Part shown: in pieces, positions 1 to 45,420 of the stretch
How the letters are laid out: each line of letters opens with the position of its first letter
Numbering within the stretch: position 1 is the stretch's first letter
NCBI GenBank assembly: GCA_021813725.1
Contig: JAKAJN010000001.1
Coordinates: forward strand, 12,990 to 76,989
Direction of reading: 5' to 3'
Length of the DNA: 64,000 nucleotides
From: a bacterium
GTDB lineage: Bacteria; Gemmatimonadota; Gemmatimonadetes; Gemmatimonadales; Gemmatimonadaceae
Notes under the pieces: generated by a model
Seen by the model: the letters and a program-made list of their open reading frames with translations, nothing else
What the model was told of the DNA's origin: nothing
The model's database searches: none
Program-made: the position numbers and the translations under genes

Positions 1-737
1 CGGCGCGGTATGTGCGCATCGAGGTCTCGCGCCTCGACCGGCTGGTCAACTTGATTGGCGAGCTGCTGCATGCGCGCGACCAGCTCACGACGCTCGTGGA
101 TGAGCGCGCCGACGCCACCCTCGACGCGGCGATGCAGCGCGCGTCGCAGCTCATCGCCGACCTCCAGGCGGAGGTGATGGCGAGCCGACTGGTGCCGGCC
201 TGGCACCTCTTCGACCGCTTCCCGCGCCTCGTGCGGGATGCGGCGCGGGCGCTGCACAAGGAAATCGAATTCACCATCGAGGGGCGCGACCTCGAAGTGG
301 ACCGATTCCTGCTCGACGAACTCGGCGAGCCGGTGGTGCATTTGCTGCGCAACGCGGTGGACCATGGCATCGAGGCGCCCGATTGGCGCGAAGCGTCGGG
401 CAAGCCGCGCGCGGGTCGCGTGGTGCTGAGCGTCGTGCGCGACGGCGCCGCGGTGCTCGTGCGCGTGCGGGACGACGGACGCGGCATCGATCGCGAGCGG
501 GTGCGCGAGCGGGCGCGCGAGCTTCACCTGCTCGCCGACGACGCACGCGCGTTGGACGACGACGCGCTGCTGCAGGTGATTGCCACGCCCGGCTTCTCGC
601 TCGCCCCCGAAGTCAGCGACCTCTCGGGACGCGGCGTCGGGATGGATGCGGTGCTCTCGCGCGTGCGCCATCTCGGAGGCGCGGTGCAGTTGGCGTCGGC
701 GCTGGGAGAGGGGACCACGATGACTCTTCGCTTCTGA
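1..737 (+). CDS. cheA: CheA-type histidine kinase, 5'-truncated by the window edge. It has P3 dimerisation and P4 HATPase domains only, with no P5 (CheW-like) domain.
   Basis: The frame is open from nt 3 (..ARYVRIEVSRLDRLVNLIGELL is P3-like). N box HLLRNAVDHGIE, G1 box DDGRGID and G2 box SGRGVGMDAV are present. The ORF stops right after the ATPase domain (GEGTTMTLRF*). Confidence 0.8.
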   Translation, partial: ARYVRIEVSRLDRLVNLIGELLHARDQLTTLVDERADATLDAAMQRASQLIADLQAEVMASRLVPAWHLFDRFPRLVRDAARALHKEIEFTIEGRDLEVDRFLLDELGEPVVHLLRNAVDHGIEAPDWREASGKPRAGRVVLSVVRDGAAVLVRVRDDGRGIDRERVRERARELHLLADDARALDDDALLQVIATPGFSLAPEVSDLSGRGVGMDAVLSRVRHLGGAVQLASALGEGTTMTLRF

Positions 738-747
738 GGGCGGCACC

Positions 748-1368
748 ATGGACGACGTCCGGAACCTCAGCACCCGCCAGCTCGACGCGCTGCGCGAAGT
801 CGCGAACATCGGCGCGGGCCACGCGGCGACGGCGCTCTCGCAGATGACCGACCAGACCATCATGATCAGCGTGCCGCGACTCAGCGCGTACCCGCTGAGC
901 GAGGGCGCGCATCAGGTGGCCGGCAGCGAGGAGCGGGTGGTGGCGGTGAACATGGGGATGGCCGGCGACCTGGCGGGCGCCACGACGCTCGTCTTCCCGC
1001 AGGGAAGTGCGCTGCGCGTCGCCGAAATGATGGCGCGGCGCCCGGCCGGCAGCTTCACGAGCATTGGCGCGTTCGAGCAGTCGGCGATCCAGGAGGCGGG
1101 GAACATCCTCGGCTCCGCCTTCCTCAATGCCCTCGCGGAGTTCATGGGGATGACGCTGCTTCCCACGCCGCCCTCGTTCGAGGTGGACACGGCGAGCGCG
1201 GTGATGGGCGCGTTCGGTCGCGCACTGCCCGGCCTGGGCTCGCTCGCGTTCGTCATCGAGACCGAGTTCTTCCTCAAGGAACGGCAGGAGCCCCTGCACG
1301 GCTTCTTCTTCATGCTTCCCGACGCGGCGTCGCTCGACCAGATCCTCAAGGCGGTGCGGTTGGCATGA
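748..1368 (+). CDS. cheC: CheC-family CheY-P phosphatase
   Basis: Both D/S-x3-E-x2-N-x22-P active-site motifs are intact (DALREVAN..22..P and SAIQEAGN..22..P). The gene starts 10 nt after the cheA stop. Confidence 0.8.
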   Translation: MDDVRNLSTRQLDALREVANIGAGHAATALSQMTDQTIMISVPRLSAYPLSEGAHQVAGSEERVVAVNMGMAGDLAGATTLVFPQGSALRVAEMMARRPAGSFTSIGAFEQSAIQEAGNILGSAFLNALAEFMGMTLLPTPPSFEVDTASAVMGAFGRALPGLGSLAFVIETEFFLKERQEPLHGFFFMLPDAASLDQILKAVRLA

Positions 1369-4076
1369 GCCGCGCGACGCTCGCCTCCTCCCGGGACCGC
1401 GACGTCCTGCGGGCGCTGGCGCGCCGCATCGATCCCTCCGATGCCGGCGCGCACAACAATCTCGGCGTGCTCTTCTACAACAAGGGGCTCCCCGAGGAGG
1501 CCGTGCAGGCGTTCACCAAGGCGCTCGAGCTCGACCCCAAGATGCCGGTGGCGCAGCGCAACCTCGAGATCGCCTACTACAACACCGGCTACTACGACCG
1601 CCACGTGGCGGACCTCAGGGAGCGACTGCGGCTGCGCGCCGACGATCGCGATGCGCGCTGGGAGCTGGGGCGCACCTTCGCCCAGCTCGGCGAGAGCGAG
1701 GAGGCGATTCGCGAGTTCGAGGAGCTGCTGCGGTACGACGGCACCGACCTCGGCGCCATCGTGCAGCTGGCGTTGGCCCAGAAGGCGGTGGGGCGGCTCG
1801 ACGAGGCGCAGCGATGGTTCGTGCATGCGCTCGAGATGGATCCCACCAGCTCGGTGGTCGCCTTCTACCTGGGTGAGACGCTGTACAACCAGGGGCTGAT
1901 GGACGAGGCGCTGGTCTCGCTGCAGCGCGCCATCCAGTTGAACCCGGAGAACCCCGATGCACACTATCTGCTCGGCTTCGTCTATGGGGACATGGGACGG
2001 GCCGAGGAGGCGCGCGCGGCGAGCAAGCGCGCGGTGCAGCTGAATCCGGCGCTGTCGCGCGAGCAGGCCAACCTGGCCATCGCCAAGTACGATCCCGGCG
2101 CGCACGAGGCGCTGCTCGCCGCGCGCCACACGCGCGCGTCGCAGCGGATGCTGGTCGCGGAGCACGACGGACTCGCGCACTACAACCTCGGGCTTGCCTT
2201 TCGGCAGAAGGGGTACTTCACCGAGGCGCTGCGCGAGTACCAGATGGCGCTCGACCGCGGGGAGGAGCGCCCGCTGGTGCAGCAGGCGATGGCCGAGGTG
2301 CACCTGCTGCGTCAGGATCCCGCGGCGGCGCTCGCGCTCTACGACGCGCTGCTCGCCGAGCGGCAGGACAGCCCGAAGCTGTGGAACGAGCACGGCGTGG
2401 CGCAGCACCAGCAGGGACATCACGCCGAGGCGGCCGCCGACTACCGGCGCGCACTGGGGCTCGACCCGCGCTATGCGCTTGCCTCCAACAACCTGGGGGT
2501 CGCGCTCTTTCACGCGGGTGACCGCGACGCGGCGATCGGCGCCTTTCGCACGGCAATCGCCGCCAACCCGGGCTTCGTCAAGGCGCGACTGAACTTCGCG
2601 CTGCTGCTCGCCCGTGCCAAGCGTGCGCAACTCGCGCTGGAAGCGTATCGGCAGGTGCTGGTCACCGACGGCGAGAATCCCGTGGCGTGGAACGGCGTCG
2701 GGCTCGTGCTCGCCGAACTGCGGAAGTTTGAGGATGCGCGCAACTCGTTCGCGCGCGCCATCCAGGCGCGACCGGAGTTTGCCGAGGCGCACTACAACAT
2801 GAGCTTCGCGCTCTCCAATCTCGGCGACTTCGAAGGGGCGTTGCGCGAGACGCGCCGCGCGCTGGAGCTCGACCCGTACTACGTGCCGCAGAAGTTCTCG
2901 CTGGCCATCGACCTCGAGTACGAAGATCCCGACCTGTCGGTCGTTCCCGACCTCGGCGGCGAACAGCGAATGAGCACGGAAGTCGGGCAGTTCGCATTCG
3001 ATCCAACGCTGCTCGACACCCTGTTCAAGGAACTCGCTCCACCACCGGTGCCGGCCGCGGCGGTCGTGCTCGAGGCCGAGCCGTACGCGATGGCCGCGGA
3101 TTACCTCACCAAGGGGCTGTACGACCGTGCCACGGCGGAGACCAGCCGCGCGATGGCACGCGGCGCCGACCTGGCCGACGGATACGCCTTGCTGGGCGAC
3201 GTGCTGTATCGGCAGGGCGCGTACGGCGACGCGCTGGAGCGATTCCGCGCGGCGAGCCGCACGCGCGCCGGCCACCGGCGTGCGCTGCAGGGGGAAGCGC
3301 AGTCGCTGATGATGCTCGGACGCGGCACCGAGGCGCGCCTCGTGGCCGAGCAGATCCTGAGCACGGCGCCGGACGACGTGGACGCACTGATGCTCGCGGC
3401 ATCGGCGCGCTTCGAGGCCGGGGACCCGGCCGCCGCGCTTGAGGCGCTGGAGCGTGCGCGCCGCCTCGCGCCGCAACGCGCCGAGGTGCTGCGCTGGATC
3501 GGCAACATCGCCCGTTCCGTCGGCGATCTCGAGGGCGCGATCTCGGCGTACCGACATGCCCTCGCGCTCGACAAGGACTTTGCCGCGGTGCGGTTCGAGT
3601 TGGCGCGCCTGCTCGTGCGGAAGTCGGCGTGGGAGGAGGCCGAGCGCGAGCTGTTGACGGCGCTCGATTCGGTGCCGACGTACGCCGAGGCGACACTCGA
3701 ACTGGCGAGCCTCAAGCGCGTCACGGGACGGCCGCGCGAGGCGGTGGACCTGCTCGTCGACCTGCTGCAGCGCGACCCGTACAACTTCGAGGCGCTGATT
3801 GCGCTCGGGGAGACGCTGCTGACGATGGGGCGCAGCGACGACGCACGCACCGCCTTCACGCGTGTGCTGCGCTTCGACCCGACGCACGTCGGCGCCATCT
3901 TCTACGACGGCGTGCTGGCGGCCGGAGCCAAGCGGTTCCGTGACGCGATCGCGGCCTGGCAGCGGGTCGTGGATCTCGAGCCGGCGGGCGAGTTCGCCCG
4001 CCGCGCGCGGCGCGAAATGCGCACGGCGCAGGACCTGCTGCAGGTGTTCGGCCGGCGCGCCGGAGGAGACGGCTGA
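1365..4076 (+). CDS. Large TPR-repeat protein (903 aa)
   Basis: TPR-like repeats run along the whole length (e.g. AHNNLGVLFYNKGLPEEAVQAFTKALELDP). The ATG overlaps the cheC stop (ATGA). Confidence 0.85.
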   Translation: MSRATLASSRDRDVLRALARRIDPSDAGAHNNLGVLFYNKGLPEEAVQAFTKALELDPKMPVAQRNLEIAYYNTGYYDRHVADLRERLRLRADDRDARWELGRTFAQLGESEEAIREFEELLRYDGTDLGAIVQLALAQKAVGRLDEAQRWFVHALEMDPTSSVVAFYLGETLYNQGLMDEALVSLQRAIQLNPENPDAHYLLGFVYGDMGRAEEARAASKRAVQLNPALSREQANLAIAKYDPGAHEALLAARHTRASQRMLVAEHDGLAHYNLGLAFRQKGYFTEALREYQMALDRGEERPLVQQAMAEVHLLRQDPAAALALYDALLAERQDSPKLWNEHGVAQHQQGHHAEAAADYRRALGLDPRYALASNNLGVALFHAGDRDAAIGAFRTAIAANPGFVKARLNFALLLARAKRAQLALEAYRQVLVTDGENPVAWNGVGLVLAELRKFEDARNSFARAIQARPEFAEAHYNMSFALSNLGDFEGALRETRRALELDPYYVPQKFSLAIDLEYEDPDLSVVPDLGGEQRMSTEVGQFAFDPTLLDTLFKELAPPPVPAAAVVLEAEPYAMAADYLTKGLYDRATAETSRAMARGADLADGYALLGDVLYRQGAYGDALERFRAASRTRAGHRRALQGEAQSLMMLGRGTEARLVAEQILSTAPDDVDALMLAASARFEAGDPAAALEALERARRLAPQRAEVLRWIGNIARSVGDLEGAISAYRHALALDKDFAAVRFELARLLVRKSAWEEAERELLTALDSVPTYAEATLELASLKRVTGRPREAVDLLVDLLQRDPYNFEALIALGETLLTMGRSDDARTAFTRVLRFDPTHVGAIFYDGVLAAGAKRFRDAIAAWQRVVDLEPAGEFARRARREMRTAQDLLQVFGRRAGGDG

Positions 4077-5041
4077 TGGCAATCGAAGGCCCGCTCCGCG
4101 AACTCGGCATCCACGACGTCTTCCAGCTCCTCGACCTGAGCCGGAAGTCCGGCGTGCTTCGCGTCGTCTCGCGGTTGCGCGACAACGAGGGGGTGGTGGC
4201 CTTCCACGCCGGGCGCATCGCGTACGCGTCCATCCGCAGCAATCCGCACCCGATCGGCGAGATGCTGCTGAAGGCCAGCAAGATCACGGCGGCCGAGCTG
4301 GATGCCGCCCGCGAGCAACAGACGCAGCACGGCGACCGGCGGCGTATCGGCGAGATCCTGATCGAGATGGGTGCTATCACGCCACGTGACATTGAGCAAT
4401 ATGTGCGTCGGCAAGCCGAGGCGGTGGTGTTCGAGCTGATGAGCTGGCGCGAGGGGCACTTCCGCTTCGAAGAGGCGAGCGCCGACGAACTCCCCGACAA
4501 CCCCTCGGTCGCGGTGTCCACCGAGTCGGTGCTGATGGAGGCGGCGCGCCGCATCGACGAATGGTCGCGCATCGCCGACCGCGTGCCCAGTCTCGCGGTG
4601 ATCCCGGAGTTCGCCGAGGCCGCCGAGGAGCACAGCGGCCAGCTCGACCTGCTGCCGGGCGAGTGGGAAGTGCTGACGCTGATTGACGGCGCGCGGGACC
4701 TGCGCCGGATGGCCGTCGATCTCGCGCGCAGTGAATTCGACGTGGCCAAGATCGTCTATGGACTGGTGAGCACCGGCGTGGTGGTGCTGCGCGAGCCCGA
4801 CCGGCGGTCGCGCGCGGTGGCGATGGACAGCGACGCCGAGGCGGAGCGGCAAGCGAACATCCGGGCGCAGGTGCTGCAGGGGCTGGCGGCGGTGACGGGT
4901 GGGCGGCTCGACGACGCCATTCGCGTCTGGTCGCACTATCTCGGGGCGCACGCCGGCGACAAGGACGCGCCCGCGGTGCGCGAGGCGGTGGAGGCGGCGG
5001 AGCGGCTGCGGCGATCGGTGGAGGTGTTGCGTGGCGAGTGA
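4076..5041 (+). CDS. PATAN (DUF4388) domain protein with a T2SSE_N/MshEN-like segment
   Basis: The N-terminus GPLRELGIHDVFQLLDLSRKSGVLRV is DUF4388-like. It is followed by PIGEMLLKASKITAAELDAAREQQ..RIGEILIEMGAITPRDIEQYVRRQ. The start overlaps the previous stop (TGATG). Confidence 0.7.
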   Translation: MAIEGPLRELGIHDVFQLLDLSRKSGVLRVVSRLRDNEGVVAFHAGRIAYASIRSNPHPIGEMLLKASKITAAELDAAREQQTQHGDRRRIGEILIEMGAITPRDIEQYVRRQAEAVVFELMSWREGHFRFEEASADELPDNPSVAVSTESVLMEAARRIDEWSRIADRVPSLAVIPEFAEAAEEHSGQLDLLPGEWEVLTLIDGARDLRRMAVDLARSEFDVAKIVYGLVSTGVVVLREPDRRSRAVAMDSDAEAERQANIRAQVLQGLAAVTGGRLDDAIRVWSHYLGAHAGDKDAPAVREAVEAAERLRRSVEVLRGE

Positions 5042-5954
5042 CGACATTCGCGCCCTCAGCGAGGCACTGGCCGCCGATCCGGCAAGTCTGGCGTTTGTGC
5101 CGCTGGGCGAGGCGCTGCGGCGCCGCGGCGACCTCGAGGTCGCGCTCCGCGTGGCGCTGCGCGGCGCGGAGCGCCACGGCACGCGCCCCGACGCGCACGA
5201 TCTCGTCGCGCGGATTGCGGTGGACCTCGGCGACCTCGAACGCGCCATCGTCGAGTGGGAGACCGTGCTGCGCATCGACCCCGCGCACGCTGGCGCGCGG
5301 AAGGGACTCGGCTTCATCTGCTTCCAGCTCGGTCGGCTCGAAGAGGCCGCATCGCACCTGTCGGTGGCGCTCTCGCTGAGTCCGGGGGATGGCTCGCTCG
5401 CCGCCGCCCTGCAGACGGTGCGCGACGAGCTGGCGGTGCGCGAGGAGTCGTCGGGGCGCTCGACGATGCAGTTCTCGCGCGAGGCGATGGCCGCGGACCC
5501 CGGGGGCGCTGCGGTGCGGCAGCGCCAGACCGCGGATCCACCCGCGCGACCGACGCTGGGTCTGGCCGCGGTGCGCGAGCAACCCGACGCCGACGCGGGC
5601 GCGCTCTTCGACGACCTGCTCGAGGGACAGCGCAGCGCGGCAATGCTGCTCGACGGCGACGGCCTGGTGCTCGCCGGCCGATACGTCTCGGCCGACGGTC
5701 GCGACCTCGCGGCCCTCATTGGCGCGCAACTGTCGGGCGTGAGCGACGAGGCGACGCGCGCCATGCGGCACCTGGGCCTCGGGGGGTGGCGGCAGATCGT
5801 CTTCGAGACGGAAGCGGCGTCGGTGGCGATGGCGCCGAGTCGGGACGGCGTGCTGCTGGTGGCGGCGGCGCGGCCGATTCCCCTCGGCTTCGTGCGGCGC
5901 GTGCTCGAGCGCGCGCTCGCGCGCGCCGTCGAGTGGCTGGGAGGTGCGGCGTGA
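5031..5954 (+). CDS. TPR + Roadblock/LC7 fusion protein
   Basis: The GTG at 5031 is in the frame of track ORF 4899..5954. The N-terminal half is TPR-like. The C-terminal half (AAMLLDGDGLVLAGRYVSADGRDLAALIGAQLSGV...VLLVAAARP) looks like a Roadblock/LC7 fold. Confidence 0.6.
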   Translation: MASDDIRALSEALAADPASLAFVPLGEALRRRGDLEVALRVALRGAERHGTRPDAHDLVARIAVDLGDLERAIVEWETVLRIDPAHAGARKGLGFICFQLGRLEEAASHLSVALSLSPGDGSLAAALQTVRDELAVREESSGRSTMQFSREAMAADPGGAAVRQRQTADPPARPTLGLAAVREQPDADAGALFDDLLEGQRSAAMLLDGDGLVLAGRYVSADGRDLAALIGAQLSGVSDEATRAMRHLGLGGWRQIVFETEAASVAMAPSRDGVLLVAAARPIPLGFVRRVLERALARAVEWLGGAA

Positions 5955-6298
5955 GTTCCGTCTTCTCGACGCTCACCGAATCGTTGATCCGGCACCGCGG
6001 GGTGCTCGGGGCCATGGTCGTGGGACTCGACGACGGACTGATCGTGGAGTCGACGCTGCAAATCGGCGTCAACGGCAACGCCTTCGCGGCGCTCACGGCG
6101 TCACTCTATCGCAAGGCGCGGCGGTCGGCCGCGGCGGCGGGCTTCGGGGCCACCGGGTTCCTGGAGCTGACGGCGGAGCAGGGACGCGTCTGCACGGCGG
6201 GAGGCCAGGAGCTCGTGCTTGTGGTCGTGTGCGAGTCGCGCGTCAACGTCGGCATGCTGCGGGTGGAGCTGCTGCGCGCCGCGGAGCAGCTGCCGTGA
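5951..6298 (+). CDS. Roadblock/LC7 domain protein (115 aa)
   Basis: The GTG at 5951 overlaps the previous stop (GTGA). The sequence HRGVLGAMVVGLDDGLIVES...ELVLVVVCESRVNVGMLRVEL is typical of single-domain Roadblock proteins. Confidence 0.65.
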   Translation: MSSVFSTLTESLIRHRGVLGAMVVGLDDGLIVESTLQIGVNGNAFAALTASLYRKARRSAAAAGFGATGFLELTAEQGRVCTAGGQELVLVVVCESRVNVGMLRVELLRAAEQLP

Positions 6299-6768
6299 GG
6301 TTCTCCGTCGTCGCCTCGTGGGTGGAGACGCCCCTCAAGCAGTTCGTGGACGATGCCCGTGTGGAGATCGCCGTGCTGATGCATCCGAACGGCCAGGTGC
6401 TCGGACAGTACGGCTTTGCGCGCTCGGTGGACGTGATGACGGCGTGCGCGCTGGCATCGGCCATCCACGCCTCGTCGTCCGAACTCGGCCGTCAGCTCGA
6501 GGGGCAGCCGTTTTCGACCCTGCACTACATGGGGCGCGACCGCCAGATCTTTCTTGGTTCCATTGCTGCCCCGTCGGGCGCGCTGCTGCTGCTCGCGGTG
6601 TTCGACCGCGAGAGTTCGCTCGGGCTCGTGCAACTGTTCCTGGAGGAGTTCCGCGCCCGCGTGGCCGTCTCGGCGCCGCCGCCCGTCCTGGACGGGCCGC
6701 CGGTGATGCAGGAGAACTTCGAGCGTGACCTCAATCGCAATCTCGCCCAGCTATTCGGACGGGCATAG
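6295..6768 (+). CDS. mglB: MglB-like Roadblock/LC7 protein (probable MglA GAP)
   Basis: The GTG at 6295 overlaps the previous stop (GTGA). VLMHPNGQVLGQ...LLLLAVFDRESSLGLVQLFLEEF resembles the MglB FD..TSLGLVRL signature as I recall it. The gene lies immediately upstream of mglA. Confidence 0.7.
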   Translation: MRFSVVASWVETPLKQFVDDARVEIAVLMHPNGQVLGQYGFARSVDVMTACALASAIHASSSELGRQLEGQPFSTLHYMGRDRQIFLGSIAAPSGALLLLAVFDRESSLGLVQLFLEEFRARVAVSAPPPVLDGPPVMQENFERDLNRNLAQLFGRA

Positions 6769-6804
6769 GCCGATGCCTTCCCACTTCTCGTCGCCGGTGC
6801 CGAC

Positions 6805-7401
6805 ATGAGCCTGGTCAACTACGCCACCCGAGAGATCACGTGCAAGATCGTCTACTACGGACCCGGGCGGTCCGGAAAGACGACGAACCTGCATTACATT
6901 TACGGGCAGGTGCCGTCCGACCGGAAAGGGCAGATGGTGTCGCTTGCCACGCAGACCGACCGGACGCTGTTCTTCGACTTCCTGCCGCTCGATCTGGGGA
7001 CGATCTCTGGCTTCACGACGCGGTTCCAGTTGTACACGGTTCCGGGGCAGGTCTACTACCAGACGACGCGCAAGCTCGTGCTGCAGGGGGCGGACGGCGT
7101 GGTCTTCGTGGCCGACAGCCAGTCGCGCCAGCTCGACGAGAACATCGAGAGCTTGCAGGACCTGCACGCCAACCTGGCGGAGCACGGGGTGGACGCGCGC
7201 AGCATCCCGCTGGTGCTGCAGTACAACAAGCGCGACCTTCCAGGGGAGCTGCTGCTGCCGGTGACAACGCTCGAGGACGCGCTCAATTTCCGTGGCGTGC
7301 CGTCGTTCGAGGCGGACGCACTGCACGGGACGGGCGTTTTCGAGACGCTGCGTTCCATCTCCGAACTGGTGCTGCGCCGGCTGGGCGCATCGAAGGGGTG
7401 A
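6805..7401 (+). CDS. mglA: MglA, Ras-like polarity GTPase
   Basis: P-loop GPGRSGKTT, intrinsic Arg in TDRTLFFDF, catalytic Gln in YTVPGQV and an NKRD box (LQYNKRDL) are all present. The protein aligns along its full length with Myxococcus MglA as I recall that sequence. Confidence 0.93.
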   Translation: MSLVNYATREITCKIVYYGPGRSGKTTNLHYIYGQVPSDRKGQMVSLATQTDRTLFFDFLPLDLGTISGFTTRFQLYTVPGQVYYQTTRKLVLQGADGVVFVADSQSRQLDENIESLQDLHANLAEHGVDARSIPLVLQYNKRDLPGELLLPVTTLEDALNFRGVPSFEADALHGTGVFETLRSISELVLRRLGASKG

Positions 7402-7402
7402 T

Positions 7403-9259
7403 GTGGTGACCGACGCGCGCGAGACATTCGGGCGGTTCGTGGTCGGGGCGAACAATCGTCTCGCCGCCGCGGCCGCGCGCGCGGTGGCCGAATCGCCGGG
7501 GGCGACGTACAACCCGCTCTTCATCTACGGCGCGCATGGACTGGGGAAGTCGCATCTGCTCGGTGCGGTGGCCGACCTTGCGGCGGGACTCTGGCCGGAG
7601 CTCGAGATACGGCGCGACGACGGCGCGCACTTCGTGGCCGGGCACGCGGCCTCGGTCGCGTCCGGCTCCGCCGAGGGGTTCCTCGCTGCGCACGCCCGCG
7701 CCGGGATGCTGCTGCTCGACGACGTGCACGCGCTCGAGGGGCATCCGTCCGCGCAGCTCGCGCTCGCGGCGCTGATTGACGGACTCGTGAGCGCCGGACG
7801 TCAGGTGGTGCTGGCCGCCGACCGGCTGCCCGCGGGGATCGCCGAGGTCGAGGAAGCGCTGGCGAACACCCTTTCGCAGGGGTTGCTCGTGGATGTCGCC
7901 GCCCCCGACTACGAGACGCGCGCGGCCATCCTGCAACGGATGGCCACGGAGCAGGGGCTCGAGCTTACGAACGACGTGGTGCAGGACCTCGCGGCGCGTG
8001 AGTATCGGGACATCGACGAGCTGCGCGCGGCGCTGGCGCCGATCGCCTCCGGCCAGCGAAAGCCGGCACCCAAACTCGACGCCGGCGAGTTCGAGAGCTT
8101 CCTGAGCGACGTGCAGGTGGTGGTGCAGCAGCACGTGGAGTCGTGGCGCGGCCGGCTCAAGGAAGCCATTGCCTACTGGCAGGCCGAGGGCTTCCGCACC
8201 GGCGTGCTGGAGCGCGCGCTCGACCTGCCCCGCGCTCCCGACGTGGCCGGACTCACCGCCACCTTCACCGCCGCGGTGGAGCACCTGCGCAACCTCGAAC
8301 GGCAGGCGCGTCAGGTGGATCCGTCGCTCGTGGGGCACGCGGTCTTCCGCGATCCGGAGCGCATGGAAGCGGCCGAAGATCTCGTGGAGCGCGCGCTGTC
8401 GGGGGAGGCGCGGGCCAAGGGCCCGAGCCCGGCCTTCGTCCGCGAAGGCTTCGAGGTGGGCGCGTCGAACCAGCTGGCGGTGCACGCCGCCGACGCGGTC
8501 GTTGCGGAGCCGGCGCACCGCTACAACCCGCTCGTGCTCTACGGCCCGAGCGGCGTCGGCAAGACGCACCTCGCCAACGCGATCGGCAACGCCCTGCAGC
8601 TGCGCGGCGACCGGCACGGGGTGGCGTGCGTCAACGCGCAGCAGCTCGTCGATGAACTCATCGAGGCGGTGCATCGCGGCGACGTCGACCGCTGGCGCGC
8701 GCGCTATCGCGCCGCCGGTGCGCTGATCGTGGATGACATTCAATTCCTCGGCGGCAAGGAGCGCACGCAAGAAGAGTTCTTCGGCATCTTCAACACGATG
8801 ATCGAGCACGGGCGACAGGTGGTCGTCACCAGCGACCGCGTGCCGGCGGACATCACCGACCTCGAGGCGCGCCTGCGCTCACGGTTCGAGGGCGGCCTCG
8901 TGGTTCCCATCCAGTCGCCCGACCGCACGCTGCGCGAGCGGCTCTTCGCGCGCTATCTCGCCGACGCCGGCCGCGCCGCTGACGAGGAGGTCCTGCACCT
9001 CCTCGGAGACCACCCGGTGCAGAGTGTGCGCGAGATCATCGGCCTCGTCACGCGCCTGGGAGCCGCGGCGGAGCTGCACGGCGCGGACATCACGGTGGCG
9101 TTCGTGCAGGGCGAGCTGGGCGATGCGGTCGCCGCGGCGGCGCCGCGCGCGCCGCGCATTTCAGCCGCCGTGTCCATCGGCGATCCGTTCCTCGACCACG
9201 AGAAGACCGTCTTCGAGTGGCCGGATGCGGGCGCGCGTCTCATCGAGGAGATGCGCTGA
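7403..9259 (+). CDS. Tandem DnaA-domain-III (Hda-like) AAA+ ATPase lacking DnaA domains I, II and IV
   Basis: Module 1 (about 7424-8041) reads TFGRFVVGANNRLA..YNPLFIYGAHGLGKSHLL..LLLDDVH..VVLAADR. Module 2 (about 8435-9106) reads GFEVGASNQLA..YNPLVLYGPSGVGKTHLA..LIVDDIQF..VVVTSDR..LEARLRSRFEGGLVV..SVREIIG. The GTG start lies 1 nt after the mglA stop. Confidence 0.8.
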   Translation: MVTDARETFGRFVVGANNRLAAAAARAVAESPGATYNPLFIYGAHGLGKSHLLGAVADLAAGLWPELEIRRDDGAHFVAGHAASVASGSAEGFLAAHARAGMLLLDDVHALEGHPSAQLALAALIDGLVSAGRQVVLAADRLPAGIAEVEEALANTLSQGLLVDVAAPDYETRAAILQRMATEQGLELTNDVVQDLAAREYRDIDELRAALAPIASGQRKPAPKLDAGEFESFLSDVQVVVQQHVESWRGRLKEAIAYWQAEGFRTGVLERALDLPRAPDVAGLTATFTAAVEHLRNLERQARQVDPSLVGHAVFRDPERMEAAEDLVERALSGEARAKGPSPAFVREGFEVGASNQLAVHAADAVVAEPAHRYNPLVLYGPSGVGKTHLANAIGNALQLRGDRHGVACVNAQQLVDELIEAVHRGDVDRWRARYRAAGALIVDDIQFLGGKERTQEEFFGIFNTMIEHGRQVVVTSDRVPADITDLEARLRSRFEGGLVVPIQSPDRTLRERLFARYLADAGRAADEEVLHLLGDHPVQSVREIIGLVTRLGAAAELHGADITVAFVQGELGDAVAAAAPRAPRISAAVSIGDPFLDHEKTVFEWPDAGARLIEEMR

Positions 9260-10881
9260 TGGCCATTCGCGGCAGTCTCAAGGAAGCGAGCCTTCCCGAC
9301 GTCCTGCAGCTCCTGTCGATGGGCAAGAAGACCGGCTGCCTGTCGGTCACGCATCGCTCCAACTTCGGGTCGATCTACTTCGACAAGGGCAAGATCTCGT
9401 ACGCCTCGATCGTGAATCGCCGCGACCGCCTCGGCGACATCCTGATGAAGAGCGGCGTGATCACGCAGGTCCAGCTCGAGGAGGGAATCGCCGCCCAGGC
9501 GCACGAGCGCGACAAGCGCCTCGGCGAGATTCTCGTCGATCGCCGCATCATCACGCGCGAGGAGCTGCACCGGCAGATTCGGCTGCAGATCGAGGAGGCG
9601 GTGTTCTTCCTGTTCACCTGGACGCAGGGGACGTTCAACTTCGAGGCCGAGATTCGCCCCGAGGAACAGGACTTCCTCGTCTCCATCAACCCCGAGTCGC
9701 TGCTCCTCGAGGGGGCGCGCCGCGTGGACGAGTGGAGCCTGATCGAGAAGAAGATTCCCGGCTTCGACATCGTCTTCGAGATTGACCGCAAGCGCCTGGC
9801 CGACAGCGGCGTGGCGCTCACGGCGGAACAGGAGGCCGTGGTGCCGCTCATCGACGGGCGACGCGACGTGGCGGCGATCGTGGACGAGACCGGGATGGTC
9901 GAGTTCGAGGTGGGGAAGGCACTCTACGGTCTCGTCACCGCCGGCTTCCTGCACCGCGTCGGCAAGACGACGAAAGTGGCGGAGACGGCCGCCCCGGATG
10001 CGCGCGTGGAAGAGCACCGCAACCTCGGGACGGCATTCTACAAGGCCGGCATGCTGGACGAGAGCGTGCGCGAGTTCCGTCGGGTGCTCGAGCTGCGGAG
10101 CACCGACGTGCAGGCCCGCTTCTACCTCGGGCTCGTGCACATCCGGCAGGGCAAGTTCGCCGACGCGGTGACGGATTACCAGGAGATTGCGTCGGCGCGC
10201 GCCGCCAAACCGGCCGTCTTCCACAACCTCGCGCTGGCGCTCGAGGCGCTCGGCCGCTGGGACGAGGCGCGGCAGGCGCTGCAGGAGGCGGTGAAGCGGG
10301 GCGGTGCGCAGGATGCGCGCGTGCTGATGGGGCTTGGCATTCTGCACCTGCGCGCCGGCGACGCGACTGCCGCCGACGCGGCGCTGATGGAGGCGCGCCC
10401 ACTTTTCACCCAGCGCGCGCCGGGCGCGGTCTGGTTCCACTACGCGGCGCTCGCTGCCGCACTCGGCGGGCACCTCGACAAGGCCATTTCGCTGCTCGGC
10501 GAAGGGACGCAGACGCATCCGCACGCCGCCACGCTGTTCAACAACCTCGCCGTCGCGCTCGAGGCCAAGGGGCGTGCCGACGAGGCGCGGGCGGCCGTGG
10601 AGAACGGCGTGCACGAGGATGCGGGCCTGCCGCAACTGCACAAGAACCTGGGCGACCTGTGCTATCGCGCCGGGCAGCTCGACGATGCGCTCGAGGCCTA
10701 TCTCCGCGCGGTGAAGTTCAATGAGCGGCTCGGACCGGACGTGTGGCGCAAGCTCGGCAACATCCGGTTCAAGCGCGAGGAGAAGGACGAGGCGATCCGC
10801 TGCTGGGAGACGGCCCTGGCCATCGATCCCACCGACGCGCGCCTGCAGGCCAATCTTGAGACGGTGCGGGGGACGCAGTGA
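9259..10881 (+). CDS. PATAN (DUF4388) + double MshEN-type motif + C-terminal TPR protein
   Basis: The N-terminus GSLKEASLPDVLQLLSMGKKTGCLSV is DUF4388-like. It is followed by RLGDILMKSGVITQVQLEEGIAAQ and RLGEILVDRRIITREELHRQIRLQ, and then by TPR repeats. The ATG overlaps the previous stop (TGATG). Confidence 0.75.
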   Translation: MAIRGSLKEASLPDVLQLLSMGKKTGCLSVTHRSNFGSIYFDKGKISYASIVNRRDRLGDILMKSGVITQVQLEEGIAAQAHERDKRLGEILVDRRIITREELHRQIRLQIEEAVFFLFTWTQGTFNFEAEIRPEEQDFLVSINPESLLLEGARRVDEWSLIEKKIPGFDIVFEIDRKRLADSGVALTAEQEAVVPLIDGRRDVAAIVDETGMVEFEVGKALYGLVTAGFLHRVGKTTKVAETAAPDARVEEHRNLGTAFYKAGMLDESVREFRRVLELRSTDVQARFYLGLVHIRQGKFADAVTDYQEIASARAAKPAVFHNLALALEALGRWDEARQALQEAVKRGGAQDARVLMGLGILHLRAGDATAADAALMEARPLFTQRAPGAVWFHYAALAAALGGHLDKAISLLGEGTQTHPHAATLFNNLAVALEAKGRADEARAAVENGVHEDAGLPQLHKNLGDLCYRAGQLDDALEAYLRAVKFNERLGPDVWRKLGNIRFKREEKDEAIRCWETALAIDPTDARLQANLETVRGTQ

Positions 10882-11762
10882 CGGCTCCGAATCTGGAATC
10901 GCTGGCGGCGCAGTTCGCCGCAATCGAGCGGCGGCTCGACGCCGGCGTGGGCGCGGGTGAGCGCGATGCGACGCGCCAGGAGATCATCACCCTGTTCCGC
11001 ACGCTGGAGCAGGGGATCGCCGACCTCACGGAAACGGTGTCGGCCCTCTCGACCCTGAAGGAGGACGTCAAGCGCCTGGTGGACAAGTTCAAGGCGCAGG
11101 GCGCCGAAGCCGCGACCAACCACCCCGAGTTCAGCGGCGAGAAGCCCGTCGTGCACGCCGACCACATCGGCGCCTCGACGTTCATCGAAAAGGGTTGGAG
11201 CCGCCTCTCGCTGGGCGACTACGAGGCAGCGGAGACCGCACTGCATCGCGCGCTTGAGCTCTCGCCGAACGATCCGCAGAGCGAAGCGCTGCTCGGCTGG
11301 GCGCAGATGCTGCAGGAGAAGTACGACGAGGCGCTGATGAACTTCCAGAAGGTGCTGATGCGCCAGCCGTCCAACGCACTCGCGCGCATCAACGTCGGCT
11401 ATATCTGCCTCAAGAAGAAGATCTTCGGCGAGGCCATCGAGCACCTCTCCAAGGCGATTCGCCTCGACAACGACAAGAAGGCGACGCTCTACGCGCACTT
11501 CTACCTCGGCCTCGTCTACCTCGAGCGCGAGATGTTCGAGGATGCGCAGACATTCTTCCGCAAGACACTCGCGCTGGGACCGAACCTCATCGAGGCGTAC
11601 TACGAACTGGGCCGCGCGCACTGGTACAACGGCGAGCGGGACGAGGCGAAGGAGGCGTGGCGCACGGGGCACGCGACCAACAAGTTCAACCCGTGGGGCA
11701 AGCGATGCGCCGAGGTGCTGCAGACGGTGGAGGCGGGCGGCGAGCCGCCGCGCTCGCCGTGA
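10878..11762 (+). CDS. Coiled-coil + TPR protein
   Basis: The GTG overlaps the previous stop (GTGA). The C-terminal 180 aa are TPR-like (YEAAETALHRALELSPNDPQSEALLGWAQ...). Confidence 0.7.
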   Translation: MTAPNLESLAAQFAAIERRLDAGVGAGERDATRQEIITLFRTLEQGIADLTETVSALSTLKEDVKRLVDKFKAQGAEAATNHPEFSGEKPVVHADHIGASTFIEKGWSRLSLGDYEAAETALHRALELSPNDPQSEALLGWAQMLQEKYDEALMNFQKVLMRQPSNALARINVGYICLKKKIFGEAIEHLSKAIRLDNDKKATLYAHFYLGLVYLEREMFEDAQTFFRKTLALGPNLIEAYYELGRAHWYNGERDEAKEAWRTGHATNKFNPWGKRCAEVLQTVEAGGEPPRSP

Positions 11763-12775
11763 TCGATCGGCGGGCGGACGCCGCGCGGTGCTCGCGCCGC
11801 GTTCGCCGCGCGCTCGTCCTGCTGGGCGCGGGCCTGCTCACGAGCGTGGCGATCCCCGCGCGCGCACTCCCGCAGGTGGGGGACGACGGGCTTCGGGTGC
11901 TCGAACGCGGCCGTTTCACCGTTCGCTACGCGCCGACCGACGAGCGGCTGGCCAACGCGCTCGCGGCGTCGGCAGCGGCGCGCGACACCTTTCCGGGCCT
12001 GCCGCGGCCGCGGGTGCACGTCGAAATCTGGGTGGCGCCGGACGACAACACCTTTCGCCAGTGGGCGGGAGACGGTGCACCGGAATGGGGCAACGCCTTT
12101 GCCTTTCCGGTGGAACGGCGCGTCGTGCTGCACGGCCACCGCAGCGGCAAGGGGGGCGACGCCCTCGAGGTGCTGCGGCACGAACTCGCGCATCTCGCGT
12201 TGCACGAGGCGCTCGGCGACATGCCGCCGCGCTGGTTCGACGAAGGGTACGCGTCCTATGCGGCCGGCGAGTGGGGACGAGACGAAGTGCTGGCCACGAA
12301 CTTCGCGCTCGCCATCGCCCTCGGACGCCTCCCGACATTTGCCGGCCTCGATTCAAGCTTTTCGCAGGGCGCCACCACGGCGCAGGCGGCGTACGCCTTC
12401 TCGTTTCGCGCGGTGGCAGAACTCGCTGCCATCGACCGCGCGCGAGGCCTCACGCTCTTCTTCGCGTATTGGCGGCGCGACCGATCGCTCGAAATGGCGA
12501 CGCGCCAGGCGTATGGCTTGACCCTCGGCGGGTTCGAGGAGTACTGGCAGCGGGCGACGCGCCGGCGCTACGGCGGACTCGCGCTGGTCACCGATCTCAG
12601 CCTCGGTGCCATCCTGGTGGTGGCGATGGTCGGTCCGCTGTGGATCATCCGCCGCCGTCGCGATCGGCGACGGCTTGAGGCCATGCGCACGGCCGACGCG
12701 GCACAGGCCGAGCGGGAACGCGCGAGCGCGCTCGCGGCACTCCTCGGTGAACAGGGGGAAGGGCCGCCGGATTAG
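11759..12775 (+). CDS. Predicted exported HExxH zinc metalloprotease (peptidase-MA-like) with a C-terminal TM anchor
   Basis: The GTG at 11759 overlaps the previous stop (GTGA). A signal-like N-terminus (RRALVLLGAGLLTSVAIPARA), the motif HELAHLALHE...WFDEGYASY and a C-terminal hydrophobic helix followed by RRRRDRRR are present. Confidence 0.55.
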   Translation: MIDRRADAARCSRRVRRALVLLGAGLLTSVAIPARALPQVGDDGLRVLERGRFTVRYAPTDERLANALAASAAARDTFPGLPRPRVHVEIWVAPDDNTFRQWAGDGAPEWGNAFAFPVERRVVLHGHRSGKGGDALEVLRHELAHLALHEALGDMPPRWFDEGYASYAAGEWGRDEVLATNFALAIALGRLPTFAGLDSSFSQGATTAQAAYAFSFRAVAELAAIDRARGLTLFFAYWRRDRSLEMATRQAYGLTLGGFEEYWQRATRRRYGGLALVTDLSLGAILVVAMVGPLWIIRRRRDRRRLEAMRTADAAQAERERASALAALLGEQGEGPPD

Positions 12776-12851: not shown

Positions 12852-13025
12852 ATGGCGAACGCACAGGACCAGCGGGTATCTGGCGCGGTATGGTGGTGGG
12901 GGGCGGCGGTTGTGACGCTTGTCCTCGGCTACGCGGACCTCGCACGCGGGGGCGAAACAATAGCCCCCATCCTGCTCGTGCTGGGCTACTGCGTGTTGGT
13001 GCCGCGGGCGATTCTCGCGCGATAG
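12852..13025 (+). CDS. Possible 57-aa two-helix membrane protein (below the ORF-track size cutoff)
   Basis: The ORF runs from ATG 12852 to TAG 13023-13025 and translates to MANAQDQRVSGAVWWWGAAVVTLVLGYADLARGGETIAPILLVLGYCVLVPRAILAR. A perfect TTGACA lies upstream at 12814-12819. Confidence 0.3.
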   Translation: MANAQDQRVSGAVWWWGAAVVTLVLGYADLARGGETIAPILLVLGYCVLVPRAILAR

Positions 13026-13048: not shown

Positions 13049-13122
13049 GGGCGAATAGCTCAGTTGGTTAGAGCACCTGCCTTACACGCAGGGAGTCGGG
13101 GGTTCGAGTCCCTCTTCGCCCA
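13049..13122 (+). tRNA. tRNA-Val (anticodon TAC)
   Basis: A cloverleaf was folded by hand. The acceptor stem is GGGCGAA/TTCGCCC and the D stem is GCTC/GAGC. The anticodon stem is CCTGC/GCAGG with loop CTTACAC, and the T arm is GGGGG-TTCGAGT-CCCTC. The discriminator is A and no CCA is encoded. Confidence 0.9.
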
Positions 13123-13192
13123 CTGTTAAGGGACGGCCTCGATGGATCGCGCACCGGCCGTTGCGGGTAGAAGGATTCAACGTTCGGAGGAG

Positions 13193-14950
13193 ATGACTGT
13201 GAAGTCTCGGCTTGGCACCGCTCGTTCGATGGTCGCGGCTACCGTCCTGCTCATTGGCTCTGCCCCCGTGGCGCAGGCCCAAGGAGTCCGGACCCCGAAC
13301 CCGAATGCCCCCCGGCTCGTGGTCGGCACGTTCCGGAGCAGCGACAAGAAGCTCTCCGTGCAGGCGTCGGAGGAGTTGCGCAGCCGGCTGAGCGCGGACA
13401 TTCCGTTCCGCTCGCTGACGGTCATTTCGTCGGCCGACTACAAGCAGGTCGTGGAGCAGTCCGGCTACCCCTACGACGAAGCCCTGACGTCCGGCGACCT
13501 CGCGAGTCTCGCGAAGCTGCTGCGCACGGATGAGTTCCTCGAGGGGATGGTGGAAAAGACCGCCACCGGCTTCCTGATCAACGCCCGGCTCGTGCTGACG
13601 CGCGACGGCGACCTGTCGCAGCCCCTGCCGCCTGCCGAAGGCGACAAGCTCGCGCGCGCCGCGTCCGTGCTGTCGAAGAGCCTGCAGGACGCGCGCAAGC
13701 AGCTCGAGTCGGAGAAGAAGTGCAACATGCTTGGTCGCGAGAACAAGCCGGCCGAAGCGATCACCGCGGCCCGCGCCGGCGTGGCGGCCTATCCGCAGGC
13801 GACGTTGGCCCGCCTTTGCGAGCTGCAGGTGCGCGTCGGCTTCAAGCAGTCGCCGGACTCGATCATTGCGATTGCCCTCGACATCATCAAGGTCGATCCC
13901 AAGAGCAAGATCGCGCTCGGTGCGGCCGCTGATGCCTATAAGGCCAAGGGCGACCAGGACAAGAACACCGAGATGCTGGTCGCGCTGCTCGCGACCGACC
14001 CGACCAATACCCGTCTGCTCGACGACGTGGTCAACGCGCTCGCCTCCGCCGGCAAGTCGGAGATGGCGAAGCCGATTATCGCGCAGGCCATCAAGGACAA
14101 CCCGGGCGACGTGCGGCTGATGAAGCTCGGCTTTCTCATCTACCTCGCCACCAAGGACATTGCCAACGGCACCGCCCTCGGCGAGGAGATGGTGAAGATT
14201 GACACGTCGGCGGCCGACACGACGTTCTTCATCAAGATGATCGGCGCGTACGAGACCGACACCGCCTTCCAGAAGGCGGCGGACGTGGCCGCCCGCGGCG
14301 TGGCGAAGTTCCCGACGAACATCACGCTTCTCTCGGCGCTGGGCTCGGAACAGCTCAAGACCGGGCAGCAGCAGCAGGCCATCGTGACCTTCCGCAAGAT
14401 TCTGGCGATCGACCCGAAGGCGCCGTCGGTCCGGATGCTGATCGCGCGCACGTTCGACGAGCTCAAGATGGCGGACAGTGCGCTGGCGGCGCTGCGCGAC
14501 GCGAAGGCGGCGGCCGAAGACGGCCAGGCGGTCGGCGGCTACGCGCTCAGCATCGGCAATCGGCTCTTCAAGGTGGGCCAGGAAGCGCTGAACAAGGCCC
14601 AGCAGAGCAAGAGCTCCGAGGACTACGCGGCGGCGATCGCCGCCAACGAGCAGGTGTTGCCGTGGGTGATCTTTGCCGACGAGACGGTGACGTCGCCGGA
14701 AAGCAGGAACCAGGCGAAGTTCCTCCGCGGGGTGGCGACGTTCCAGATTTCGGTCGCCGCCGTCAGCGACGCGCCGAAGACGAAGTCGTGCGAGCTCGCG
14801 AAGCTGGCCCAGGAGCATATCGCGGTGGCGCAAGTGAACCTGCCGGCCGGCGGCCGTTTTGCACCTGACGCGGTGTCGCAGCTCATGCCGATCATTCCGC
14901 AGATCATGACAGGCGCCGAGTCGATGGTGAAGGCGTACTGCAAGCCGTAG
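13193..14950 (+). CDS. Secreted helical/TPR-like repeat protein
   Basis: The ATG at 13193 lies a few nt downstream of the Shine-Dalgarno-like sequence GGAGGAG. The signal peptide is SMVAATVLLIGSAPVAQAQG. The protein is Lys/Ala-rich with helical repeats. Confidence 0.7.
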   Translation: MTVKSRLGTARSMVAATVLLIGSAPVAQAQGVRTPNPNAPRLVVGTFRSSDKKLSVQASEELRSRLSADIPFRSLTVISSADYKQVVEQSGYPYDEALTSGDLASLAKLLRTDEFLEGMVEKTATGFLINARLVLTRDGDLSQPLPPAEGDKLARAASVLSKSLQDARKQLESEKKCNMLGRENKPAEAITAARAGVAAYPQATLARLCELQVRVGFKQSPDSIIAIALDIIKVDPKSKIALGAAADAYKAKGDQDKNTEMLVALLATDPTNTRLLDDVVNALASAGKSEMAKPIIAQAIKDNPGDVRLMKLGFLIYLATKDIANGTALGEEMVKIDTSAADTTFFIKMIGAYETDTAFQKAADVAARGVAKFPTNITLLSALGSEQLKTGQQQQAIVTFRKILAIDPKAPSVRMLIARTFDELKMADSALAALRDAKAAAEDGQAVGGYALSIGNRLFKVGQEALNKAQQSKSSEDYAAAIAANEQVLPWVIFADETVTSPESRNQAKFLRGVATFQISVAAVSDAPKTKSCELAKLAQEHIAVAQVNLPAGGRFAPDAVSQLMPIIPQIMTGAESMVKAYCKP

Positions 14951-14953
14951 CGG

Positions 14954-15144
14954 CAGAGCGACAACAGAGAAAAAGCAGAGAGAAAACAGAGAGACAACAG
15001 ACGGGCGGGCGACCTTGAGTTGCTCGTCCGTCTGTTGTCTCTCTGCTTTCTTTCTGTTTTCTCTCTGTTTTCTCTCTGTTTTCTCTCTGTTTTCTCTCTG
15101 TTTTCTCTCTGTTTTCTCTCTGTTGTTTCTCCGTTGTCTCTCTG
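14954..15144. repeat. 11-bp tandem array with an embedded hairpin
   Basis: Four purine-strand copies (CAGAGAGAAAA-like) occupy 14954-14997. An 18-bp perfect stem pairs 14987-15004 with 15028-15045. Ten pyrimidine-strand copies occupy 15035-15144, including six perfect TTTTCTCTCTG units at 15057-15122. Confidence 0.95.
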
Positions 15145-40268: not shown

Positions 40269-40390
40269 GGCACAGGCGGGCTGGCAGGCCCGGGCAGAGT
40301 GGGAATCCTTGGAGTCTTGCCTTGGTACCTGCTGGCGGCAAGGGCTGGCGACCGATCAACGTCGTGTCGCCCTGCTACGTTTCAGCACGC

Positions 40391-42187: not shown

Positions 42188-42190
42188 TCC

Positions 42191-43300: not shown

Positions 43301-43479
43301 CGGGGCAGGGAGAAGGGAGATTGCGTGCGGGGCAGCCAGCCGAACCACTGCGTCCGGAGTATGAGCACACGCGGCGCGCGCCGCCACAGCGGGGTGCCGA
43401 CGCTGTCGGGGAGCCACGCACCCCGCGTGAATGCCTTGCCGACTCATCTTGAGGTTGCACCCTACATTTCGCGGCGCCC

Positions 43480-43495
43480 CCAAACGCTAGTTTGG
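43480..43495. promoter_or_regulatory. Perfect 16-bp palindrome CCAAACGCTAGTTTGG, ending 52 nt upstream of the hoxF ATG (candidate operator)
   Basis: Read directly from the sequence. No binding-protein family is assigned. Confidence 0.25.
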
Positions 43496-45410: not shown

Positions 45411-45420
45411 GGACCATACG

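Follow-up and report, generated by a model that had tools for sequence, protein, structure and literature searches.

A conserved Gemmatimonadales operon combining Che-type genes, an MglA/MglB switch and PATAN proteins with a tandem DnaA-domain-III ATPase

The window analyzed here is a 64,000-nt stretch of a Gemmatimonadaceae genome (GenBank assembly GCA_021813725.1, contig JAKAJN010000001.1, forward-strand positions 12,990 to 76,989), and positions 1-12775 are filled by twelve plus-strand open reading frames (ORFs) whose stop and start codons overlap or nearly abut (Table 1). In order, they encode the C-terminal part of a CheA-type kinase, CheC, a tetratricopeptide-repeat (TPR) protein of 903 residues (TPR903), a PATAN protein (PATAN1), a TPR-Roadblock fusion, a short Roadblock protein, MglB, the small GTPase MglA, a tandem AAA+ ATPase built from two DnaA-domain-III modules, a PATAN-TPR protein, a 294-residue TPR protein (TPR294) and an HExxH peptidase. 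The twelve ORFs and the junctions listed in an initial annotation of this DNA were all confirmed in place, and its domain calls were confirmed by Pfam, NCBIfam and PDB searches, which reassigned none of the key domains to an unrelated family. Eight of the eleven junctions overlap or are separated by at most 1 nt, and the translational coupling is real, the same tight junctions recurring in about 20 independent Gemmatimonadales contigs. The start at 5031 is the choice of the gene callers on identical contigs, with an alternative GTG at 4899. No consensus intrinsic terminator was found inside the unit save one weak 5-bp match at 12384, and a sigma-70 promoter scan, which is uninformative for this phylum, returned 0 sites. 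The G+C content is uniform (0.65-0.76).

The unit extends beyond the window. The CheC protein is identical on several metagenome-assembled contigs (e.g. GCA_027418145.1; loci L001-L004), which expose the sequence upstream, namely ftsH, yggS, divIVA, a gene of the PNP_UDP_1 (nucleoside phosphorylase) family, ileS, a dksA-like gene, lspA and rluD, followed by cheY and a 480-residue cheA that has Hpt, P2, dimerisation and HATPase domains but lacks P5. As called, cheY starts too far downstream, and an upstream GTG yields a product of about 118 residues in which the N-terminal acidic DD pocket is restored (VLICDDAIFMR...). Since cheY and the rest of cheA lie outside the window, the twelve genes first described hold as a count within the window, and the unit, cut by the window edge, comprises at least 14 genes.

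Table 1. Coordinates of the operon, its junctions, the parts of the tandem ATPase and the downstream flank.
Feature	Position in the window	Strand	Basis or remark
cheA, 3' part (dimerisation + HATPase_c)	1..737	+	Pfam H-kinase_dim, HATPase_c; NCBIfam CheA
cheC, CheY-P phosphatase family	748..1368	+	Pfam CheC 5e-24
TPR903, 903-aa all-TPR protein	1365..4076	+	Pfam TPR families
PATAN1 (DUF4388), MshE-type c-di-GMP motif insert	4076..5041	+	Pfam PF14332 1e-32
TPR + Roadblock/LC7 fusion	5031..5954	+	Pfam TPR_19, TPR_2, Robl_LC7 (34.9 bits)
Roadblock/LC7 protein, 115 aa	5951..6298	+	Pfam Robl_LC7
mglB, 157 aa, weak Roadblock match	6295..6768	+	Orthologue profile vs PDB
mglA, Ras-like polarity GTPase	6805..7401	+	PDB match to M. 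xanthus MglA
Tandem DnaA-domain-III AAA+ ATPase, 618 aa	7403..9259	+	Pfam Bac_DnaA x2
PATAN-TPR: PATAN + tandem MshE-type motifs + C-terminal TPR array	9259..10881	+	PF14332 3e-38, TPR families
TPR294, 294-aa TPR protein	10878..11762	+	Pfam TPR families
HExxH Peptidase_MA_2 protein (MA clan), last gene of the unit	11759..12775	+	Pfam PF13485 3e-12
Junction cheA/cheC	cheA end 737, cheC start 748		
Junction cheC/TPR903	1365		ATGA
Junctions TGATG	4076 and 9259		
Junction PATAN1/TPR-Roadblock	5031		11-nt overlap
Junctions GTGA	5951, 6295, 10878, 11759		
Gap before mglA	6768 to 6805		36 nt
Gap mglA/tandem ATPase gene	7403		1 nt
ATPase N-module	7403-8068		Residues 1-222
ATPase helical linker domain	8081-8398		Residues 227-332; family-specific
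ATPase C-module	8408-9127		Residues 336-575
ATPase disordered stretch and conserved tail	9128-9256		...FEWPD..RLIEEMR
tRNA-Val(TAC)	13049-13123	+	
TPR602, 602-aa protein with a few TPR repeats	13142-14950	+	Syntenic in all relatives
Strong terminator	14993-15039		20-bp stem; directly before mraW
mraW	start 15178		Followed by a PBP (penicillin-binding protein) transpeptidase gene
ftsZ	32020		Further downstream of mraW

Conservation of the neighborhood was examined by scanning contigs from a single genome of each species, the query being an alignment of 14 ATPase sequences. At least 21 loci carry a full-length tandem match; among the matches listed, all of these are from Gemmatimonadota (labeled Gemmatimonas, Gemmatimonadaceae or Gemmatimonadales), and the others are single-module canonical DnaA of other phyla. 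By tblastn, a fixed one-strand order, rluD-cheY-cheA-cheC-TPR903-PATAN1-TPR/Roadblock-Roadblock-mglB-mglA-ATPase-PATAN/TPR-[insert]-TPR294-peptidase-TPR602-mraW, is present in L007, L008, L010-L012, L016, L018, L019, L022-L024, L087 and L088; across the ordered loci, identity of the ATPase falls as low as 33%. Thus, the neighborhood is conserved outside this genome, the same order occurring in about 20 related genomes. The ATPase gene always lies between mglA and the PATAN-TPR gene, and it overlaps the latter by one base (T[GA]ATG) in 15 of the 21 listed loci and abuts it with a 0-nt gap in two more. One Gemmatimonadaceae/Gemmatimonas subclade (L013 and L015) lacks the TPR-Roadblock, Roadblock and mglB genes between PATAN1 and mglA: L013:8044-9147 and L015:8060-9127 correspond to window 4076-6768, and PATAN1 there is without the alpha-helical c-di-GMP (cyclic diguanylate) insert. 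Since both loci retain PATAN1, mglA (63-65% protein identity), the ATPase and PATAN-TPR genes, these four form the core of the cluster. The conserved overlaps and the pattern of losses, both in this subclade and among the Che components (below), add weight, on comparative grounds, to a common function beyond synteny.

The tandem ATPase consists of four parts. In the AlphaFold2 model (predicted local distance difference test score, pLDDT, 76.9), two αβα AAA+ domains with lids are separated by a helical linker, and residues 575-607 are disordered before a short terminal helix. By Foldseek, each AAA+ part matches DnaA domain III (template-modelling, TM, score 0.83 to B. subtilis 8bv3 and 0.87 to T. 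maritima 2z4r), and sequence searches against PDB gave DnaA domain III matches of 3.6e-44 for the C-module and 3.9e-34 for the N-module, as against 6e-8 for Hda. Each module is 37-46% identical to canonical DnaA of other phyla, and the two modules are 30.5% identical to each other. Matches of the whole model to p97-like proteins were rejected, as they reflect a generic double-AAA+ arrangement only, with a root-mean-square deviation above 20 Å. The chain ends about 40 residues past the lid, and no Pfam match to DnaA_N (domain I) or Bac_DnaA_C (domain IV) was obtained at E ≤ 0.01. NCBIfam Hda scored 168 bits, under its cutoff of 195, and by eye no clamp-binding motif was seen at the N-terminus. 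The protein thus falls outside both DnaA, lacking domains I and IV, and Hda, having two modules and no visible clamp motif; the public label "chromosomal replication initiator protein DnaA", often given to such proteins, is misleading.

An alignment of 153 family members reveals which motifs are kept. The Walker A lysine is present in 100% of the members in both modules and the Walker B acidic pair in 95-99%, and the arginine finger is found in 69% of the N-modules and 95% of the C-modules. In the C-module, Walker A and B, sensors I and II and both box VII arginines are present at 90-100% conservation. The C-module also keeps equivalents of the single-stranded DNA (ssDNA) contacts of DnaA, I420 (84%), K452 (83%) and R454 (90%), which are not kept in the N-module; we take I420 and K452 to correspond to I190 and K222 of B. 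subtilis DnaA, and R454 to R245 of the E. coli protein. The initial annotation had called the ATPase DNA-binding-less, and this is correct for domain IV, which is absent, but not for the DnaA-like ssDNA-contact residues of the C-module.

The linker, strongly conserved, folds alone into a helical domain (pLDDT 87.6, predicted TM score 0.70), and its model has no significant Foldseek match in PDB (best E 3.3). When 1.84 billion representatives were searched exhaustively with HMMER, it turned up in only 227 proteins, all named members of which are from Gemmatimonadota. The extreme C-terminus of the ATPase is likewise conserved and is acidic (...V[WF][ED]W......RLIEE.R). A second Gemmatimonadales family (P0136, P0151, P0189, P0195 and others; loci L085:6100-7872 and L086:8001-9683) shares the linker domain, placed after a Cys-rich domain related to the C-terminal domain of the [FeFe]-hydrogenase large subunit and a long Pro/Ala-rich linker, and at least two full-length members (P0136 and P0151) end in a similar tail, ...LVYDWMMLEELLIEDM. 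Its gene is solitary, divergent from that of a Crp-like regulator and near pntAB, and no Mgl link was seen in the gene neighborhoods of the P0136, P0151 and P0189 family. Because linker and tail are shared by this second family, the two together resemble a transferable unit, which perhaps serves in targeting or in binding partners. A protein resembling an ATPase/PATAN-TPR fusion (P0211) was discarded, since it seems to be a frameshifted read-through that continues into the gene for PATAN-TPR.

MglA-GTP marks a cell pole, and MglB switches MglA off. Group 1 MglA proteins are recognized by a Ras-like G domain, a Thr that replaces Asp within the PM3 motif (TxxGQ), the arginine finger R53 and the catalytic Gln82. 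The product of 6805-7401 matches M. xanthus MglA (5ymx) with an E-value of 1.6e-74, gapless over residues 1-150, and has the Group 1 signatures R53 (TDRTLFF), T78 and Q82 (YTVPGQ) and NKRD; judged by this match, it is a bona fide MglA. A profile of the 157-residue protein encoded directly upstream and 11 orthologues (n = 12) matched only MglB chains in PDB (M. xanthus 5e-15, T. thermophilus 5e-9), and the single sequence matched MglB at 1.7e-5, which identifies it as MglB, the putative GTPase-activating protein of MglA. The profile of 11 orthologues of the 115-residue Roadblock protein, on the other hand, matched Robl/LC7 chains at 3e-10 and MglB only at 0.014, and this protein is best classed as a generic short Roadblock protein (LC7/LAMTOR2-like), not of the MglB type. 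A third Roadblock domain is fused to the TPR repeats of the 5031-5954 product.

PATAN genes are known neighbors of mglA and mglB (PMC4316618), a precedent that the initial annotation had given correctly. We searched the PATAN domains (PF14332) for the 24-residue MshE-type motif RLGxx(L/I/V)2xxG(L/I/V)2x4Lx3Lx2Q. PATAN1 contains one perfect 24-mer, RIGEILIEMGAITPRDIEQYVRRQ (residues 90-113, nt 4343-4414), and PATAN-TPR contains two in tandem (residues 57-110, nt 9427-9588), the first, RLGDILMKSGVITQVQLEEGIAAQ, being a perfect consensus and the second deviating at one position. NCBIfam NF053729, a model of the MshE-related c-di-GMP motif, scored 44.9 bits for PATAN1 and 44.5 bits for PATAN-TPR (cutoff 38), and the motifs recur in most PATAN orthologues. 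Both PATAN proteins are therefore predicted c-di-GMP sensors. In Synechocystis, PATAN serves as the output domain, binding PilB1 and PilC (preprint 10.1101/2021.06.11.447907). Of the remaining proteins, TPR903 orthologues in relatives are 38-86% identical, the N-terminal part of TPR294 looks helical by eye, and the peptidase has hydrophobic N- and C-terminal segments, also judged by eye. In Bdellovibrio, a TPR protein binds MglA and is its effector (PMC3983030). Another TPR protein, SgmX, is an effector of MglA in Myxococcus.

The Che components of this genome are a reduced set. The core of a Che kinase pathway is present, with the Hpt, P2, dimerisation and HATPase domains of CheA, CheY with its DD, D and K residues, and CheC. 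In the CheC translation, both E-x2-N motifs are visible and the Pfam match falls in two stretches; NCBIfam CheC_Thtogales matched at 1e-41 but under its curated cutoff (143 vs 250 bits). The cheA product ends directly after the kinase domain, without the P5/CheW-like domain, and neither CheW nor a chemoreceptor (MCP) is encoded in the cluster. In most relatives, CheA has about 135 further C-terminal residues past the kinase domain, which are P5, and the genes for PATAN-TPR and TPR294 are set apart by 3.3-4.4 kb of DNA coding for CheR, CheD, CheB and either one or two CheW proteins. An MCP is absent from the cluster in the relatives too, though P5 and CheW are present there. The window genome, L005 and L087 (a Gemmatimonas metagenome-assembled genome with 81% ATPase identity) lack both P5 and cheRDBW, and L088 (72% ATPase identity), whose cheA is outside the contig, keeps cheR-cheD-cheB and two cheW. 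The lack of P5, which had been noted from this genome, is thus genuine here but is not a design feature; by comparison with the relatives, the absence of P5 and cheR-cheD-cheB-cheW is a recent loss of receptor coupling in this lineage and not a property of the system. Since P5, CheW, CheR, CheB and CheD are deleted while CheY, CheC and the kinase core of CheA still appear intact, the relay presumably runs uncoupled from chemoreceptors.

The cluster lies in all relatives between the yggS-divIVA-ileS-lspA-rluD block and the division and cell wall (dcw) cluster. The ftsH/yggS/divIVA/ileS/lspA-type block resembles the tail of a Gram-positive division cluster; here the block with divIVA lies upstream of mraW...ftsZ, and the Che-Mgl operon is inserted between both blocks. 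Between the peptidase gene and the tRNA-Val gene, a 57-residue ORF (12852-13025, plus strand; hydrophobic by eye) is kept in L088 (11766-11939), with one conservative substitution in the last 33 residues. No mraZ was seen in the roughly 230 nt between the TPR602 gene and mraW. The initial annotation had connected the operon to the cell cycle through dcw, and mraW does lie 2.4 kb downstream, but the link rests on adjacency, with a tRNA gene and a terminator intervening. Since the rluD and mraW flanks are syntenic in all relatives, the adjacency is indistinguishable from inherited gene order, and a connection between the operon and the cell cycle is speculative.

Taking these features together, we lean with modest confidence towards the operon being a co-expressed module that would set or switch the polarity of the cell on behalf of machinery at the pole, most probably type IV pili. 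Genes for such pili are common across Gemmatimonadota (PMC10581226; PMC7844134), and flagella are patchy (PMC10581226). In such a module, phosphorylation through the CheY/CheA/CheC relay and c-di-GMP would both feed into MglA/MglB, with MglA-GTP acting as the switch and MglB turning it off. The TPR-Roadblock and Roadblock pair may be a scaffold or a co-regulator, and the output may be carried by the TPR and PATAN proteins as effectors and adaptors. The tandem ATPase, whose gene always lies between those for MglA and PATAN-TPR, could be an ATP-dependent assembly platform, in which the C-module would bind and hydrolyze ATP and oligomerize head-to-tail like DnaA, and the helical linker and the acidic C-terminal tail would offer docking sites to partners. 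TPR co-chaperones bind C-terminal EEVD peptides, and by analogy the tail is a candidate ligand for TPR domains.

Several observations weigh against this reading. The platform role is a proposal drawn from the gene position and the motifs, and it fits poorly with the relatives of the ATPase, since to our knowledge the characterized members of the DnaA/DnaC/IstB clade all act on DNA. In the clade of the window, T156 of the N-module replaces the arginine finger, A152 occupies the neighboring box VII position, and the sensor-II arginine is also lost by our reading of the alignments; because of these three losses, the N-module is probably catalytically inert. No pilus genes were found in the window or its flanks. 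In addition, all conserved loci come from one order and have syntenic housekeeping flanks (rluD and mraW at every locus), so gene order alone is no proof of functional coupling.

The same signaling module may have another output, namely determining where polar growth, budding or division takes place, not the positioning of pili; we regard this as possible but doubtful. The conserved position beside divIVA and the dcw/ftsZ cluster would suit it, and both fission and budding are reported for Gemmatimonas species (PMC7844134). The lost chemoreceptor coupling also fits a housekeeping polarity role more easily than taxis. However, in the characterized cases the targets of MglA and PATAN systems are machines for motility or pili, and the CheR, CheB, CheD and CheW proteins of most relatives point to a behavior that adapts to stimuli.

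The ancestry of the ATPase raises a different possibility, in which it acts on DnaA or the origin and brings replication initiation or chromosome handling under the MglA polarity switch. It might, for example, join DnaA filaments on ssDNA or cap them, or stimulate the hydrolysis of DnaA-ATP in the manner of Hda. Both modules are nearer to genuine DnaA domain III than to each other or to Hda, and the ssDNA-contact equivalents, both box VII arginines and sensor II of the C-module are retained across the 153 members. The location between the divIVA block and dcw in all relatives and the fission and budding of Gemmatimonas (PMC7844134) are also in keeping with such a role. Nevertheless, the ATPase is devoid of domains I and IV and of a clamp-binding motif visible by eye, no dnaA or origin lies nearby, the cumulative GC skew rising steadily over the 20 kb profiled, and the DnaA-like residues may be kept only for ATP-dependent oligomerisation. 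The proximity to dcw, too, is indistinguishable from inherited synteny, and we consider this coupling unlikely. The same low plausibility applies to its boldest form, that this double ATPase, found only in Gemmatimonadota among the matches listed, is an MglA effector on DnaA or ssDNA at the origin, through which polarity, c-di-GMP and the Che relay would gate the replication or the placement of the chromosome in bacteria that both bud and undergo fission. If the ATPase does still communicate with DnaA or DNA, it would tie polarity to replication in a new way.

It is very unlikely that the genes have no common function and are independent small operons left adjacent by slow gene-order change in Gemmatimonadales. 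The equally syntenic flanks and the restriction of the loci to one order are what such a history would leave, but it does not account for the tight junctions and their conserved overlaps, or for the joint loss of P5 and cheRDBW in one lineage. Moreover, the pathways of the components are already known to cooperate in other phyla, and among the matches listed the ATPase family is met only in this context. An anti-phage defense or mobile island, which the mixture of AAA+ ATPase, TPR, GTPase and protease superficially resembles, can safely be set aside, as the cluster has a fixed chromosomal position between core genes in all relatives and a uniform G+C content, and PADLOC gave generic P-loop and TPR matches only.

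Parts of the polarity module have counterparts elsewhere. In M. xanthus, MglA/MglB works with MglC, RomR/RomX, RomY and SgmX and is driven by the Frz chemosensory system, and the resemblance extends from R53, T78 and Q82 of MglA and the MglB partner to an extra Roadblock paralogue, a large TPR protein and an input from a Che-type kinase and response regulator. In contrast, the Gemmatimonad parts are in one operon, PATAN proteins with c-di-GMP motifs and the tandem ATPase are integral to it, and the present lineage is without receptor coupling. No protein like RomR/RomX, the guanine-nucleotide exchange factor of that module, was found in the cluster, in which the sole receiver domain is the single-domain CheY. 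The Bdellovibrio bacteriovorus hub of MglA, the TPR protein Bd2492, RomR and CdgA (a receptor for c-di-GMP), cited correctly as a precedent in the initial annotation, sits at one pole and controls type IV pili (PMC3983030), and it shares with our cluster the association of MglA, a TPR protein and a c-di-GMP receptor. However, Bdellovibrio is without MglB, the genes are dispersed, and the hub has no Che genes and no AAA+ ATPase; its receptor is a degenerate GGDEF protein, whereas the Gemmatimonad candidates are PATAN/MshEN proteins.

Three further systems are similar in single components. The cyanobacterial Tax/Pil systems with PatA-type (PATAN-REC) proteins share the PATAN alpha-helical insert and the link to a Che-type phosphorelay, but the Gemmatimonad PATAN domain stands alone or is fused to TPR repeats, not to a receiver, and its partners are MglA/MglB and the ATPase. 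The DnaA domain III fold and motifs of both ATPase modules are shared by DnaA, Hda, DnaC and IstB; the ATPase differs from these proteins in its two modules per chain, its family-specific helical domain and its location inside a GTPase/Che operon. The actinobacterial conservons CvnA-D also bring together, within a single operon, a kinase, a Roadblock protein and a GTPase of the MglA family (PMC4316618), but here the kinase is of the CheA type, not the CvnA type, the GTPase belongs with M. xanthus MglA and not with Group 2 of the conservons, and no cluster protein matched DUF742 (CvnC) in Pfam or NCBIfam. The association of MglA/MglB with PATAN and the Che-type and c-di-GMP links to MglA are therefore known in outline. 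In the literature, we found no description of the cluster or the tandem ATPase and, in line with the initial annotation, nothing linking MglA to a DnaA-like ATPase. Not found described are the single conserved operon uniting these parts, the TPR-Roadblock fusion and, above all, the tandem ATPase with its helical domain.

What is understood of MglA/MglB switching comes almost entirely from Myxococcus, in which the genes for the parts are dispersed and the connection with Frz had to be uncovered by genetics. Here, a whole candidate circuit is contained in one conserved operon of a little-studied, environmentally abundant phylum with cultured members, and the operon offers a parts list for asking how phosphorelay and c-di-GMP inputs converge on a small GTPase. 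It also exposes an unstudied family in which the motor domain of a replication initiator is duplicated and placed in a signaling context. The reduced variant (no P5, CheW, CheR, CheB or CheD) and the Roadblock-less subclade together form a natural deletion series.

Elsewhere in the window, a hybrid histidine kinase with PAS, HisKA, HATPase_c and receiver domains is encoded near the end (59911-62331, plus strand), with no evident link to the operon. A block of redox genes occupies 34578-48202. On its minus strand are fdhD and genes for a formate-dehydrogenase-like molybdopterin oxidoreductase and a NuoF-like subunit, and its plus strand encodes the large subunit of a NiFe-hydrogenase and another set of NuoF-like and NuoG-like proteins. 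The block also contains a 621-residue ORF with no Pfam match (40322-42187, plus strand) and, in between these sets, a GH53 galactanase gene (42191-43483, minus strand).

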